Shown here piece by piece: positions 4,269 through 28,306 of a stretch of DNA of 64,000 nt (positions within the stretch are counted from its first letter, which is position 1; the number at the start of each line of letters is the position of its first letter). Below the pieces are notes generated by a model that ran no database searches, had not been told where the DNA came from, and worked only from the letters and a program-made list of their open reading frames with translations. The stretch comes from Escherichia coli (GTDB lineage: Bacteria > Pseudomonadota > Gammaproteobacteria > Enterobacterales > Enterobacteriaceae), in NCBI RefSeq assembly GCF_044324785.1, contig NZ_CP172127.1; one strand, written 5' to 3'. A program made the translations under genes and the position numbers.

Positions 4269-5702
4269 TTACAGCATGTTCCAGCCGATCAGCATATTCC
4301 ACCACCACACTCCGAGGGTGATATGCACCAGGAAGGTTAATATCGTCAGTACCGCACCGACCAACCACCAGGATTTAATATCGTTGTAACCCACGCCAAA
4401 GATGACCGGACCTGCCGCGCCGCCATAGTGAGTAACCATGCCGCCATAGGAGTTGGAGAACAACAGTGCCAGCGCGGTTAACATTAACGGTGCGCCGGAG
4501 ACGTTCGCCAGCATGGCAAATACCGGTAACATGGCAACGATATAGGCACTACCGGAAGCGAAGAAATAACGCACGATAATGCTGAGGAAAATAATAACGA
4601 AGAAAGCAACGTTACCGTGACCATCAAATGCCAGGTTATTTTTAAAGACTTCAGCTAACCATTCGAAGAATTTCACTTTCGATAATAAGGAGCTTAAGCC
4701 GATAATACCGCCGTACCAGATTAAGGTATTCCAGCCGCCTTTATTTTTAACCACGTCTTCCCAGGTAACGATACCCAGCAGCAGCATAGTCGCCATAACA
4801 ACGATTGCCACGGTGGATTCATCAACCCCCAGTGACTTACTGAAAATCCAGCCCAGTAGCGCCAGCACAAAGACACCGAGCAGCATTTTTTCGCGGATTT
4901 TCATCGGTCCCAGTTCGGCAAGGCCCGCTTTGGCGATGGTTTTGTTATCCACCTTCTTAATTTCTGGCGGATACATGGTGTAAATCACCAGCGGGGTGAC
5001 CAGCAGCATAATGATACCCGGCAATCCAGCGGCCAGCGCCCATCCACCCCAGCTAATTTGCAGGTGCAGAATGTCGTTGATCATTTTCAGCGCCAGAATG
5101 TTCCCCGCCATTGCGGTAAAGAACATATAGCTGGTGGTTTTGGTGACCATGTAAATGGACATCATCAGGTAATGTCCGACACGACGCGGACTTTTTTCCG
5201 GTTCGGACCCCAAAGCCACCGCCACACTGTTGATGATCGGTAACACAATGCCGCCCGCACGCGCGGTGTTAGACGGTGTTGCCGGAGCCAGTACCAGATC
5301 GAGGAATACCGTAACGTAACCCAGACCCAGCGTGGTGTTACCGATTTTACCAATCAGCAGATAGGCTATACGTTTGCCTAAGCCGGTGGTCACAAATGCG
5401 GCGCTTAAGGTGAACGCCGAGAACACCAGCCAGGTGGTACCTGAAGAGTAACCGCTTAATACGGCGGTGGTCTTAAACGCACCGTCGGATAAGTTACCGA
5501 CCACCACCATTGAGGCAGCAACGGCAATTAACAGTACGACAGGTTCCGGGAAAGGCTTGATAACCAGCCCCACAATGGCCGCCAGGTAAATACCAAAAAG
5601 CACCCACGCCAGTTCGCTTAATCCTGCCGGAGCTGGCATAAAGCCAATAATACATGGGATCGCTAATATCAGAATTAGCTTCCATAACGATTTTTTATTC
5701 AT
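4269..5702 (-). CDS. ybhI: DASS-family anion/tricarboxylate transporter
   Basis: 477 aa highly hydrophobic ORF; synteny. Confidence 0.8.
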   Translation of the reverse strand: MNKKSLWKLILILAIPCIIGFMPAPAGLSELAWVLFGIYLAAIVGLVIKPFPEPVVLLIAVAASMVVVGNLSDGAFKTTAVLSGYSSGTTWLVFSAFTLSAAFVTTGLGKRIAYLLIGKIGNTTLGLGYVTVFLDLVLAPATPSNTARAGGIVLPIINSVAVALGSEPEKSPRRVGHYLMMSIYMVTKTTSYMFFTAMAGNILALKMINDILHLQISWGGWALAAGLPGIIMLLVTPLVIYTMYPPEIKKVDNKTIAKAGLAELGPMKIREKMLLGVFVLALLGWIFSKSLGVDESTVAIVVMATMLLLGIVTWEDVVKNKGGWNTLIWYGGIIGLSSLLSKVKFFEWLAEVFKNNLAFDGHGNVAFFVIIFLSIIVRYFFASGSAYIVAMLPVFAMLANVSGAPLMLTALALLFSNSYGGMVTHYGGAAGPVIFGVGYNDIKSWWLVGAVLTILTFLVHITLGVWWWNMLIGWNML

Positions 5703-9157: not shown

Positions 9158-9976
9158 ATGACCACACGCGTGATTGCTCTCGACTTAGACGGCACCTTAT
9201 TGACCCCGAAAAAGACCTTGCTTCCATCATCGATAGAAGCCCTGGCCCGCGCTCGCGAAGCAGGCTATCAATTAATCATCGTCACAGGTCGCCATCACGT
9301 CGCTATTCATCCTTTTTATCAGGCGCTGGCGCTGGATACACCTGCTATTTGCTGTAATGGCACCTATTTGTATGATTATCATGCAAAAACCGTGCTGGAA
9401 GCGGACCCAATGCCCGTTAATAAAGCCCTGCAACTCATTGAGATGCTGAATGAACACCACATTCACGGTCTGATGTATGTCGATGATGCAATGGTCTATG
9501 AGCACCCGACCGGGCATGTCATTCGCACGTCTAACTGGGCGCAAACCCTGCCGCCGGAACAGCGTCCGACTTTCACACAAGTCGCTTCTCTGGCTGAAAC
9601 GGCGCAACAAGTTAACGCCGTATGGAAGTTCGCCCTGACGCACGATGACCTGCCGCAATTGCAGCATTTTGGTAAGCATGTCGAACATGAACTGGGACTG
9701 GAGTGTGAATGGTCCTGGCACGATCAGGTTGATATTGCACGCGGCGGCAACAGCAAAGGTAAACGTTTGACGAAATGGGTTGAGGCGCAAGGCTGGTCGA
9801 TGGAAAACGTCGTGGCGTTCGGCGATAACTTTAATGATATCAGTATGCTGGAAGCCGCTGGTACAGGCGTGGCGATGGGCAACGCCGATGACGCAGTAAA
9901 AGCGCGCGCCAACATTGTGATTGGTGATAACACCACCGACAGCATTGCCCGGTTCATTTATAGCCACCTGATTTAA
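9158..9976 (+). CDS. ybhA: HAD-superfamily phosphatase (pyridoxal phosphate phosphatase)
   Basis: HAD motif IALDLDGTLL at N-terminus; start placed at MTTRV (ATG 9158) inside the longer ORF-track frame. Confidence 0.85.
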   Translation: MTTRVIALDLDGTLLTPKKTLLPSSIEALARAREAGYQLIIVTGRHHVAIHPFYQALALDTPAICCNGTYLYDYHAKTVLEADPMPVNKALQLIEMLNEHHIHGLMYVDDAMVYEHPTGHVIRTSNWAQTLPPEQRPTFTQVASLAETAQQVNAVWKFALTHDDLPQLQHFGKHVEHELGLECEWSWHDQVDIARGGNSKGKRLTKWVEAQGWSMENVVAFGDNFNDISMLEAAGTGVAMGNADDAVKARANIVIGDNTTDSIARFIYSHLI

Positions 9977-24446: not shown

Positions 24447-25490
24447 TTATCCACGTAGTGTAGCCGCAAAATACAGCATACGATTGAGCGGCACTAGCGC
24501 CCTCTCTCGCAGCCTTTCATCAACATGAACCTCGTGATTGCTTCCTTCCTGTTCTAATGCCTCTGCGATGGCCTGAAGGCCATTCATGGCCATCCACGGA
24601 CAATGCGCGCAGCTGCGGCAGGTTGCACCCTCACCTGCGGTTGGTGCTTCCAGTAACTCTTTATCTGGCACCGCCTGCTGCATTTTGTAGAAAATACCCC
24701 GATCGGTTGCCACAATAATCCTCTGATGTGGCAATGTTTTCGCAGCAGCGATCAGTTGACTGGTGGAACCGACCGCATCCGCCATATCGACAATAGCGTG
24801 TGGTGATTCTGGATGCACCAGTATGGCAGCATCCGGGTATTCTTCTTGCAAGCGGGTTAACGCCTGAGTCTTAAATTCATCATGCACAATGCAGGCACCC
24901 TGCCAGCATAAAATGTCTGCGCCCGTCTGTTTTTGCACGTAACGCCCCAGATGTTTGTCGGGTGCCCAGATGATTTTTTCACCCAAACTATCCAGATGAT
25001 CAATAAGTTCGACGGCAATGCTTGAAGTTACCACCCAATCTGCCCGCGCTTTTACCGCAGCAGAAGTGTTGGCGTAGACGACGACAGTATGATCGGGATG
25101 GGCATCGCAAAATACGTTAAATTCTTCAACAGGGCAGCCGAGATCCAGTGAACATTCAGCCTGAAGTGTCGGCATCAGAATTGTTTTTTCCGGACTGAGA
25201 ATTTTGGCGGTTTCTCCCATAAATCTCACCCCAGCGACTAACAACGTAGAAGCGGGATGCTTTGCACCGAAGCGCGCCATTTCCAGAGAATCAGAAATAC
25301 AGCCACCGGTTTCTTCTGCCAGTTGTTGAATTTCGGGATCGGTATAGTAGTGGGCAACCATCACCGCATTACGTTCTTTTAGCAGACGTTTTATCTTCTC
25401 GCGGTAATACGCTTTTTCATCAATGCTTAACGGCGTCGGCTTCGGGGGGAAAGGATAAATCGCCGTGTCTGGATCAAACATCACGCTCAT
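24447..25490 (-). CDS. nadA: Quinolinate synthase A
   Basis: 347 aa; synteny. Confidence 0.9.
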
Positions 25491-25580: not shown

Positions 25581-25707
25581 AGATAGTCGAATGGTGGGGA
25601 AAAGTCACTCGAATTACGCCTAATTCCACCGACGTAGAGTTGCTTGCAAAGTAAGCTCTGAAGATGTCATCAGGTTACAAAGTGAAATTGAGGATGCCTG
25701 AATAGCC

Positions 25708-25733
25708 AAAAAGCGCCTTTAGGGCGCTTTTTT
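25708..25733 (-). terminator. Second copy of the tRNA-operon intrinsic terminator
   Basis: aaaaagcgcctttagggcgctttttt, strand-symmetric hairpin with flanking A/T runs; duplicate of the 25864-25890 element. Confidence 0.55.
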
Positions 25734-25737
25734 ACAT

Positions 25738-25800
25738 TGGTGGGTCGTGCAGGATGACTCGCTTCGCTCGCCCTTCGGGCCGTCGCCGCGAGCGGCTCCG
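25738..25800 (-). repeat. tRNA-Lys 3'-end-like fragment, copy 1
   Basis: Begins with the 17 nt tggtgggtcgtgcagga shared with the real tRNA-Lys 3' end, then diverges into atgactcgcttcgctcgcccttcgggccg. Confidence 0.6.
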
Positions 25801-25863
25801 TTGTTTCGCTGCGCTCAACTCAAACCTGCTGCAGGTTCGAATCTTTGAGTATCGCAGATAGCA

Positions 25864-25890
25864 AAAAAGCGCCTTTAGGGCGCTTTTTTA
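25864..25890 (-). terminator. Intrinsic terminator immediately after lysQ
   Basis: gcgcctttagggcgc hairpin with T-run on the minus-strand transcript. Confidence 0.7.
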
Positions 25891-25893
25891 CAT

Positions 25894-25969
25894 TGGTGGG
25901 TCGTGCAGGATTCGAACCTGCGACCAATTGATTAAAAGTCAACTGCTCTACCAACTGAGCTAACGACCC
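25894..25969 (-). tRNA. lysQ: tRNA-Lys(UUU)
   Basis: Reverse complement matches E. coli tRNA-Lys (GGGTCGTTAGCTCAGTTGG...CGACCCACCA), 76 nt. Confidence 0.95.
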
Positions 25970-26002
25970 CTTGCGGGATTATGCTGCTTTAATCATTCAG
26001 GA

Positions 26003-26078
26003 TGGTGGGTCGTGCAGGATTCGAACCTGCGACCAATTGATTAAAAGTCAACTGCTCTACCAACTGAGCTAACGACCC
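26003..26078 (-). tRNA. lysZ: tRNA-Lys(UUU)
   Basis: Identical 76 nt tRNA-Lys copy. Confidence 0.95.
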
Positions 26079-26126
26079 ATACGGGTGTTACCTGAAAGAT
26101 TTCTACTCGGAACCAATCTTTAAAAT

Positions 26127-26195
26127 TGGTGGGTCGTGCAGGATGACTCGCTTCGCTCGCCCTACGGGCCGTTGCTGACGCAACGTTATCCTTCA
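26127..26195 (-). repeat. tRNA-Lys 3'-end-like fragment, copy 2
   Basis: Same 17 nt tRNA 3' terminus plus atgactcgcttcgctcgccctacgggccgttgctgacgcaacg (contains CGTTGC-tga-GCAACG hairpin). Confidence 0.6.
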
Positions 26196-26224
26196 CGCTT
26201 AACATCTGAGTTTGATGTTAAAAT

Positions 26225-26300
26225 TGGTGGGTCGTGCAGGATTCGAACCTGCGACCAATTGATTAAAAGTCAACTGCTCTACCAACTGAGCTAACGACCC
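26225..26300 (-). tRNA. lysY: tRNA-Lys(UUU)
   Basis: Identical 76 nt tRNA-Lys copy. Confidence 0.95.
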
Positions 26301-26303
26301 GAG

Positions 26304-26379
26304 TGGTGGGTGATGACGGGATCGAACCGCCGACCCCCTCCTTGTAAGGGAGGTGCTCTCCCAGCTGAGCTAATCACCC
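26304..26379 (-). tRNA. valZ: tRNA-Val(UAC)
   Basis: Reverse complement matches E. coli tRNA-Val (GGGTGATTAGCTCAGCTGGGAGAGC...), 76 nt. Confidence 0.95.
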
Positions 26380-26430
26380 GATACTGCGCTGGATACTACA
26401 AACTACTTCCACCGAACCCACCGTAATTAG

Positions 26431-26506
26431 TGGTGGGTCGTGCAGGATTCGAACCTGCGACCAATTGATTAAAAGTCAACTGCTCTACCAACTGAGCTAA
26501 CGACCC
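26431..26506 (-). tRNA. lysW: tRNA-Lys(UUU)
   Basis: Identical 76 nt tRNA-Lys copy. Confidence 0.95.
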
Positions 26507-26508
26507 GG

Positions 26509-26584
26509 TGGTGGGTGATGACGGGATCGAACCGCCGACCCCCTCCTTGTAAGGGAGGTGCTCTCCCAGCTGAGCTAATCACCC
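26509..26584 (-). tRNA. valT: tRNA-Val(UAC)
   Basis: Identical 76 nt tRNA-Val copy. Confidence 0.95.
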
Positions 26585-26619
26585 GATACTACGCTGGATA
26601 CTACAACTAACTATGTTAG

Positions 26620-26690
26620 TGGTGGGTCGTGCAGGATGACTCGACTTCGTCTCGCCCTTCGGGCCGTTGCTGATGCAACGTTATCCTTCA
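26620..26690 (-). repeat. tRNA-Lys 3'-end-like fragment, copy 3
   Basis: Same 17 nt tRNA 3' terminus plus atgactcgacttcgtctcgcccttcgggccgttgctgatgcaacg. Confidence 0.6.
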
Positions 26691-26719
26691 CGTTTTACTA
26701 CCGCTTCCACCTTAGCGAT

Positions 26720-26795
26720 TGGTGGGTCGTGCAGGATTCGAACCTGCGACCAATTGATTAAAAGTCAACTGCTCTACCAACTGAGCTAACGACCC
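26720..26795 (-). tRNA. lysT: tRNA-Lys(UUU)
   Basis: Identical 76 nt tRNA-Lys copy; first gene of the operon. Confidence 0.95.
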
Positions 26796-26959
26796 ACTTT
26801 TTCGTTGCTTTCGGTTTGTTTGATATCCCGTGGCAACGGCGGCATATATTACTGATTTCAGACTTGAGCGCAACAAAAATTTCGATGTAGATCACTCAAC
26901 TGCTTATGATTCGCACGACACGACCAGAAATAATGCGACTTCTGGTCGTGTGTTATGCA

Positions 26960-27751
26960 TTACATCGCGTTCAGACGTTTTTGCGCCTGTTTAGCGCCAT
27001 CAGTACCAGGATATTTACTGATAACCTGCTGGTATACGGCTTTCGCTTTTGCGGTGTCACCTTTGTCCTGCATGATGACGCCGACTTTAAACATCGCATC
27101 TGCAGCCTTTGGTGACTTCGGATAGTTTTTCACTACCGAAGCAAAATAGTACGCCGCATCATCTTTTTTACCCTTGTTGTAGTTTAACTGACCCAGCCAA
27201 TAATTGGCGTTTGGCAGGTAAGTTGAATCAGGGTAATTTTTGATGAAATTCTGAAATGCCACCATTGCGTCATCCTGGCGGGATTTATCCTGCACCAGCG
27301 CAATAGCTGCATTGTAATCCGTGTTTGCATCACCGCTTTTCACCGGCGCGCCAGCATTCGCAGTACCAGCATCAGCTGTCGGCGTCGTTGATGCCGCCGC
27401 ACCGCTTTGATCACCGCTGGTTGATTGCGCCGCTGCACCACCGCTGCTGAGGCTGTCGATCTGCAACAGGATCTGCTTTTGCCGCTCCACGACCTGATTC
27501 AGTTGATACTGATTTTCCTGAATCTGACCGCGCAGGGAATCAATATCGGATTGATTATCAGAGAGTTGTTGCTGGAGTTGGGTTAAAAGCTGGCTGTGAG
27601 CATTTGAAATACGCTCAAGTTGAGTGACGCGGTCTTCGACCGAGCCTGAGCCGACACTACTGATTGGTGCCTGAGCAAAAGCGGCCCAGGGGGCCGCTAT
27701 ACCAACCAGTAACGACAGACTCAATAGTTGATGTCTGAAGTTACTGCTCAT
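26960..27751 (-). CDS. cpoB: Cell division coordinator CpoB (YbgF), TPR protein
   Basis: 263 aa with signal peptide, coiled-coil and TPR region; last gene of the tol-pal cluster. Confidence 0.9.
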   Translation of the reverse strand: MSSNFRHQLLSLSLLVGIAAPWAAFAQAPISSVGSGSVEDRVTQLERISNAHSQLLTQLQQQLSDNQSDIDSLRGQIQENQYQLNQVVERQKQILLQIDSLSSGGAAAQSTSGDQSGAAASTTPTADAGTANAGAPVKSGDANTDYNAAIALVQDKSRQDDAMVAFQNFIKNYPDSTYLPNANYWLGQLNYNKGKKDDAAYYFASVVKNYPKSPKAADAMFKVGVIMQDKGDTAKAKAVYQQVISKYPGTDGAKQAQKRLNAM

Positions 27752-27760
27752 GCAATTCTC

Positions 27761-28306
<546 letters not shown>

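Follow-up and report, generated by a model that had tools for sequence, protein, structure and literature searches.

Copies of the tRNA-Lys 3' end in an Escherichia coli lysT operon as probable tails of tRNA-linked repeats

Three copies of the tRNA-Lys 3' end that lie outside tRNA genes in the lysT operon of an Escherichia coli sequence (a stretch of 64,000 nucleotides, referred to here as the window) are very probably, at about 0.85, the tails of tRNA-linked repeats (TLRs; Rfam RtT, RF00391), an already known family. Each copy pairs with an upstream strand that tracks the host tRNA and thus is a structural component of the TLR, not a relic. TLRs were first noticed at tyrT (Stenum et al. 2021, PMC8144298, citing Egan & Landy 1978), and K-12 has 22 of them at 10 loci, with one to five at each (PMC8144298, citing Rudd 1999). 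Their hallmark is an 18-19 bp segment that matches exactly the 3' end of whichever tRNA or 5S gene lies upstream (PMC8144298). An earlier note on this DNA, which singled out the three fragments, was unsure whether they are described for K-12. The family is; the layout in the window is not that of MG1655, with three units in place of five. TLR elements are already catalogued, have an Rfam model and are annotated in part in RefSeq, so that the finding, though real, is an ordinary one.

The operon lies on the minus strand, as do all the genes, units, empty sites and terminators described below. ARAGORN finds seven tRNA genes there in the window, five tRNA-Lys(UUU) and two tRNA-Val(UAC), in agreement with the seven intact genes counted previously. 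These are lysT, the first gene of the operon (tRNA-Lys, 26720-26795; Rfam tRNA score 79.2 bits), valT (tRNA-Val, 26509-26584), lysW (tRNA-Lys, 26431-26506), valZ (tRNA-Val, 26304-26379), lysY (tRNA-Lys, 26225-26300), lysZ (tRNA-Lys, 26003-26078) and lysQ (tRNA-Lys, 25894-25969), the final tRNA gene. In the ARAGORN calls the five tRNA-Lys copies are identical to each other, and so are the two tRNA-Val copies. Processing of the lysT operon has been studied by Agrawal et al. (2014, PMC4176162), where the repeats go unmentioned.

An exact search with the 17-mer TGGTGGGTCGTGCAGGA returns eight perfect occurrences (0 mismatches), where chance would give 0.03. Of these, five are within tRNA-Lys genes and three elsewhere, at 25738-25754, 26127-26143 and 26620-26636. 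With these counts and the ARAGORN boundaries, the three extra termini reported in the earlier note can be attributed neither to chance matches nor to misplaced tRNA boundaries, the two errors against which that note had cautioned. The stretch identical to the tRNA is 18 nt, not 17, and reads ATCCTGCACGACCCACCA in RNA sense in 3/3 units. Units A, B and C lie directly downstream of lysT, lysY and lysQ, respectively, on the same strand as the tRNA genes. Unit A (26620-26719, position TLR1) is of the short form, with a 27-nt leader and a structured module of ~73 nt that ends in the tRNA-Lys 3' end, its exact 18-nt copy lying at 26620-26637. Unit B (26127-26224, position TLR3; end copy 26127-26144) is also of the short form, while unit C (25738-25863, position TLR5; end copy 25738-25755) is of the full-length form, is placed between terminators, and contains a T-arm-like inverted repeat, GATTCGAACCTGC/GCAGGTTTGA, followed by the conserved core. 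The non-tRNA sequence said to be shared by all three fragments is exact at 25754-25782 and has one mismatch at 26143-26171; in the third copy, beyond 26636, there are two single-base insertions that give unit A one more A-U hairpin pair.

All three units reach the RF00391 gathering score of 45. The match of unit A spans 26620-26788 (60.2 bits) and that of unit B 26127-26293 (55.0 bits), these two passing the threshold only by way of the upstream tRNA-Lys body placed on the 5' half of the model with a 44-nt insertion, so that they are truly homologous to the model over ~65 nt only. The match of unit C covers 25738-25863 (46.7 bits, model positions 1-130), and this unit is annotated as 'RtT sRNA' in the RefSeq record of strain N3, which equals the window at 100% over 25600-26900. 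When the 17-nt end copy is excluded, alignment of the three units with the tyrT unit gives z values of 9.6 (A), 11.4 and 12.4 (C), as against -0.4, 0.4 and 1.4 with the first 58 nt of tRNA-Lys. Neither ARAGORN nor the Rfam tRNA model calls any of the units in the window as a tRNA. The units resemble the tyrT repeat and not the body of tRNA-Lys, which rules them out as decayed tRNA-Lys genes.

This comparison bears directly on the interpretation offered in the earlier note, in which the fragments are footprints of tRNA-gene duplication and decay, that is, what is left, at the 3' end, of tRNA-Lys copies that arose by duplication inside the operon and later decayed. A link between the repeats and rearrangement stands, and the operon is indeed repetitive, with identical tRNA-Lys genes that would permit unequal crossing-over and with strains in our comparison that have four or six of them. 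Unit C also keeps, just upstream of its core, a near-copy of the 5' half of the T arm (GCAGGTTTGA versus GCAGGTTCGA). Decay as such, however, is contradicted by the z values outside the 18-mer, which point to tyrT rather than to tRNA-Lys, and by features of the fold and of the wider family to which we return below.

Unit C sits between two copies of the putative operon terminator. The first copy (25863-25888) consists of an A-run, a GCGCC-CUAAA-GGCGC hairpin and a U-run, and the second (25708-25733) falls within a 54-nt direct repeat; the hairpin has been described as the lysT operon's Rho-independent terminator and is identical to the valU terminator (PMC4176162). The duplication of the terminator with a fragment between its copies, as first noticed, is borne out by the two occurrences of GCGCCTTTAGGGCGC (25713-25727 and 25869-25883). 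Both are inside the 54-nt repeat (25702-25755 and 25858-25911, 98% identical), which is made up of the 18-mer and 36 nt of terminator, and the fragment at 25738 is flanked by both hairpins. Each terminator copy has a 5-bp stem, all GC, plus a T6 run. The output of a simple terminator scan lacked the GCGCC/GGCGC hairpin; we suspect that the flanking A and T runs lengthen the stem and consume the T tail, which would explain the miss. A 35-codon arginine-rich open reading frame runs antisense to unit C, on the plus strand; we considered it as a tpr-like gene and rejected it: the frame in unit B stops after 11 codons, and in the tyrT repeat tpr sits on the sense strand.

An alignment of 29 short-form units with Lys and Arg hosts supports a fold in which a closing helix, formed by an upstream strand and the tRNA-end copy, surrounds three hairpins. 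The GC-rich TLR core begins with the hairpin CGUUGC/GCAACG, continues with GCCCGWAGGGC and a variable GNRA-like hairpin, and is followed by the 18-nt end copy. The T-stem and acceptor bases of the end copy pair with the upstream strand (GUGAAGGAU/AUCCUGCAC), and ~8 nt ending in CCA stay single-stranded. Standard pairs fill 94.7% of the cells of the alignment, a level reached by 0/500 shuffles and compared with 27-49% for slid controls. In five pairs both partners change. Pair 8-71 is G-C when the unit is Arg-linked and U-A when it is Lys-linked, and pair 48-57 occurs as five pair types; it is the hairpin with this latter pair that acquires the additional A-U pair from the two extra bases of unit A, relative to units B and C. 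The minimum free energy fold of unit A (26620-26695) is the structure supported by covariation, with a z of -3.7, and the folds of units B and C also beat those of shuffled sequence. The full-length form, seen in unit C and in the tyrT units, in addition places the 5' half of the host tRNA T arm and its reverse complement upstream of the core.

A partner strand that follows the host tRNA in this way points to selection on structure rather than to a neutral relic, and the covarying closing helix argues that a structure of RNA (or of single-stranded DNA) is under selection. It also tells against decay from tRNA-Lys, as upstream of the core stands the tRNA end in reverse complement, a strand that covaries with the host.

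The core pattern GCRACGRCCCGWAGGGYGAR, scanned over a collection with one genome per species, finds loci in many genera of Enterobacterales, in Gilliamella/Zophobihabitans, and in a few other Gammaproteobacteria (Thioalkalivibrio, Marinobacterium and Amphritea). Many matches in GC-rich genomes from outside the Gammaproteobacteria (Streptomyces, Acidobacteria and others) were set aside as chance, being remote from any tRNA. [quoted passage not shown] The hosts of the 82 are tRNA-Lys (36), tRNA-Tyr (27), tRNA-Arg-ACG (13), tRNA-Pro (5) and tRNA-Ser (1), and some modules, in Siccibacter and Phytobacter, are closed by the 5S rRNA 3' end. At three loci a variant acceptor base of the host tRNA is also present in the TLR. 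Tandem arrays of TLR plus terminator follow tRNA-Lys at two loci, in Pantoea and Klebsiella, and in E. coli the valU-valX-valY-lysV operon has a full-length TLR after lysV, at the operon end. In Citrobacter, Kosakonia and Phytobacter, whole tRNA-Tyr-like bodies run into the TLR core at the T loop. These joined bodies suggest that the family could have arisen when an insertion entered a duplicated tRNA gene at its T loop.

To that extent a partial copy of a tRNA may stand at the origin of the TLR family, and the tRNA-Tyr-like bodies are in this respect a point in favor of a history of duplication and decay. Local decay of tRNA-Lys, though, cannot explain why the same core is also found on Tyr, Arg, Pro, Ser and 5S ends, and the sharp boundary of identity, at 18-19 nt in nearly every exact-copy module (81/82), runs against it as well. 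The decay of tRNA-Lys copies is largely refuted as the source of the three fragments, and we regard it as extremely improbable.

Comparison of the locus in 15 E. coli sequences, namely 14 strains and the window, reveals that the TLRs vary more than the tRNA genes. In MG1655 a TLR follows every tRNA-Lys gene, which makes five in total, while the window contains only TLR1 (between lysT and valT), TLR3 (between lysY and lysZ) and TLR5 (after lysQ). All five positions are also filled in JME66 and AR202.2; cq9 has positions 1, 2, 3 and 5, O102:H6 has 1, 3, 4 and 5, and N3, like the window, has 1, 3 and 5. Positions 1, 3 and 4 are occupied in WG5, C41(DE3) and ATCC 8739, positions 3 and 4 in SCPM-O-B-8794, and position 3 alone in RIVM_C037794 and 7386Nal; the EPEC E2348/69 derivative has only position 5, and AR_451 has no TLR. 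The number of units thus ranges from 0 to 5 while the set of five tRNA-Lys and two tRNA-Val genes is kept in 13/15 sequences, the exceptions being 7386Nal (4 Lys + 2 Val) and the EPEC derivative (6 Lys + 2 Val). The alignment across genomes proposed in the earlier note, meant to reveal variation in tRNA copy number, accordingly finds that number near-constant, and it is the TLR count that varies instead. Genomes that had appeared to be of a 'tRNA-Lys x2' type proved, once their loci were fetched, to be mere partial matches. Among complete E. coli genomes, 1,048/5,426 (~19%) cover at least 80% of the five-unit arrangement of K-12, a rough figure, as the query spanned the whole operon, with 60 rows at even spacing, and the repeats fragment the alignments.

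The empty sites are precise. The lysW-valZ spacer of the window (26380-26430), the empty TLR2 site, is 51 nt long, as compared with 149 nt in MG1655, where a 98-nt TLR starts exactly at the CCA end of the tRNA; the lysZ-lysQ spacer (25970-26002), the empty TLR4 site, is 33 nt, as compared with 132 nt including a 99-nt TLR. At both positions in the window the tRNA CCA joins directly the sequence that follows the CCA of the TLR in MG1655. Across the 15 sequences, all empty sites are precise at the 18-nt repeat, with position 5 precise at the 54-nt repeat. Exact identity of the end copy is not always kept, since the pseudo-3' end of TLR3 has point mutations in cq9 and WG5. Citrobacter werkmanii, C. 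youngae and Pseudocitrobacter have positions 1 and 4 filled, between flanks that are recognisably orthologous; with these outgroups occupied at TLR1 and TLR4, loss accounts for the empty sites in E. coli. Strains with zero to five units and a nearly constant tRNA set amount to natural knock-outs, and because some or all units are missing from such strains, the operon does not require the units for its expression.

On another reading, the units are remnants or active copies of a small insertion element, or of the attachment sites of integrative elements, aimed at the T loop of stable-RNA genes and duplicating the 18-19 nt up to the CCA. The target sites of many integrases begin in the tRNA T loop, and there the identity block of the units also begins. 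Presence and absence of the units are precise, with direct repeats on the flanks, a single core is found at five tRNA types and 5S, and the tRNA-Tyr-like bodies of Citrobacter, Kosakonia and Phytobacter are broken by the core at this very loop. Yet the 80-138 nt between the repeats hold no integrase or cargo genes, and at unit C the same terminator comes after both repeats, which tandem duplication fits better. Ancestral occupation of TLR1 and TLR4 makes the polymorphism within E. coli one of loss and not of new insertion, and a complementary 5' strand specific to the host would be unexpected in a mobile insert. On balance we find insertion distinctly improbable, and current mobility of TLRs is not supported. 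An extension of the idea, in which the core descends from, or still is, a T-loop-inserting element that has been kept since the paired 3'-end mimic of its folded RNA acts as a decoy or guide for enzymes that recognise the 3' end of the host, strikes us as very doubtful; were it true, the strains with zero to five units would constitute a ready allelic series for function.

For the units as TLRs, the following course would fit the observations. As for the DNA, direct repeats of 18 nt (54 nt at unit C) together with the identical tRNA genes would permit precise loss or duplication of units, and could account for the indel polymorphism as well as for the occasional change in tRNA-Lys number. At the RNA level, the units would be co-transcribed with the tRNAs, unit C only when transcription continues past the first terminator. 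Because each unit ends like a tRNA, the nucleases that mature tRNA would be expected to release it, and we infer that the RNase E, RNase P and exonuclease steps of tRNA maturation yield the units as by-products of ~100 nt. Both rtT and RrB are processed RNAs, and a role of the repeated end in directing RNase E cleavage has been suggested (PMC8144298); the idea of the earlier note that the fragments in the lysT operon may be processing sites is in agreement with that suggestion. Northern blots of the lysT operon with spacer probes revealed only precursors, in RNase P mutants, and a stable ~100-nt spacer RNA was not reported in the wild type (PMC4176162), so the excised by-product may be short-lived.

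These published data also weigh on the possibility that the units are trans-acting RNAs which, after excision, serve as a sponge or decoy for proteins or small RNAs. Hairpins that are conserved and covary across genera, and folds more stable than those of shuffled sequence, indicate selection on structure, as such RNAs would require, and in vitro binding to Hfq and CsrA has been seen for the related rrn-linked TLRs RrA, RrB and RrF, which the dual terminators T1 and T2 flank on both sides (PMC8144298). The 19 TLRs of tRNA operons, on the other hand, score <0.01 as CsrA binders, and the stringent-response phenotype once ascribed to rtT has been retracted (PMC8144298). The want of a reported stable spacer RNA in the wild type (PMC4176162) likewise counts against a trans-acting role, as does the fact that some or all of the five units are missing from natural E. 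coli strains (all five from AR_451). We consider it unlikely, and a regulatory or decoy role for the lysT-operon units has no support. TLRs have been without an assigned function (PMC8144298) since 1978, and the strain series and the data on the closing helix may help future work on the family.

Among known systems, 3'ETS-leuZ offers a parallel for the proposed release of the units, as it is a spacer RNA freed from a tRNA precursor by processing RNases. It is not a TLR, however, and it sponges RyhB and RybB by base-pairing, unlike anything established for the lysT units. The closest likeness is to the TLRs, or RtT elements, of K-12, which are likewise located downstream of a tRNA, with 18-nt end identity, a core with hairpins and several units per locus. 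Nothing essential sets the window units apart from these TLRs, of which they are members; the difference from MG1655 is in number, three units in the window strain and five in MG1655. The rtT RNA (rttR) of the tyrT-tyrV operon has the homologous core (z 9.6-12.4) and the 3' end of its host, as do the window units, and its tandem arrays resemble the lysT operon in that each unit is then followed by the same downstream sequence. The rtT ends correspond to tRNA-Tyr over 19 nt, whereas those in the window correspond to tRNA-Lys over 18 nt. In contrast to the tyrT prototype, units A and B are short and lack its 5' T-arm-like hairpin, and the tpr reading frame present in the tyrT units is absent from unit C. 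The RtT model was itself built from the tyrT repeats, and on it the four MG1655 units at tyrT reach 133-138 bits, compared with 47-60 bits for the window units. Finally, RrA, RrB and RrF, in rrnA, rrnB and rrnD, share with unit C the layout of gene, terminator, TLR and terminator; they end in the 5S rRNA 3' end and bind CsrA by GGA motifs, whereas the units of the window end in tRNA-Lys.

Antisense to unit C, the tRNA-linked repeat (TLR) that follows lysQ, the plus strand of the window contains a 35-codon arginine-rich ORF (MTRFARPSGRRRERLRCF..., 25754-25861), which begins at an ATG created where the 17-mer copied from the tRNA-Lys 3′ end meets the TLR body. This ORF is probably not a gene, because the equivalent frame at unit B, the TLR of the lysY-lysZ spacer, ends after 11 codons.

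On the minus strand, the region at 27722-27860, upstream of cpoB, matches the Rfam CpoB/ybgF intercistronic RNA thermometer (RF02782) with a score of 142 bits. The window nadA gene (24447-25490, minus strand) is intact, with 347 codons, whereas nadA of E. coli strain N3 (L001) is frameshifted according to RefSeq. Thus, despite the identical tRNA operon, the window is not simply the N3 record.

In E. coli IH5 (L128, NZ_CP168949.1), cpoB is followed by a single tRNA-Lys gene and then by yrdA/yrdB/aroE, which replace the remainder of the operon and nadA, suggesting a chromosomal rearrangement with its breakpoint within the tRNA array. The first tRNA-Lys gene, lysT, of E. coli RIVM_C037794 (L129) starts with GGATCG rather than GGGTCG, and a mispair is expected at position 3 of the acceptor stem; this start is either a genuine variant or a sequencing error. 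Single substitutions are also present in the pseudo-3′ end of the position-3 TLR, in the lysY-lysZ spacer, of strains cq9 (L124; …CGACACACCA) and WG5 (L125; …CGAGCCACCA), and therefore upkeep of the tRNA-end copy is not invariable.

A tRNA-Tyr-like body joined to a TLR core was observed in Citrobacter werkmanii (L015, ~9200-9450, reverse strand), Kosakonia cowanii (L017, ~4480-4720, reverse strand) and Phytobacter massiliensis (L095), its position being conserved across the three genera. The body lies immediately 3′ of the tyrT promoter, between it and the real tyrT, and harbors the anticodon loop CTGCAAA and an altered D arm. The TLR core joins the body directly at the T loop, and a degenerate 3′ end closes the unit, an arrangement with the appearance of a tRNA gene copy broken up by a TLR core.

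In L030, L032, L033 (Siccibacter colletis) and L093 (Phytobacter massiliensis), a 5S-like segment, GAGAGTAGGA, lies before the TLR cores, which terminate in the 5S rRNA 3′ end (...AACTGCCAGGCAT). In Brenneria roseae (L115) a core is located just upstream of a 5S gene. The cores that end in the 5S rRNA 3′ end are rrn-linked members of the TLR family (Rfam RtT, RF00391).
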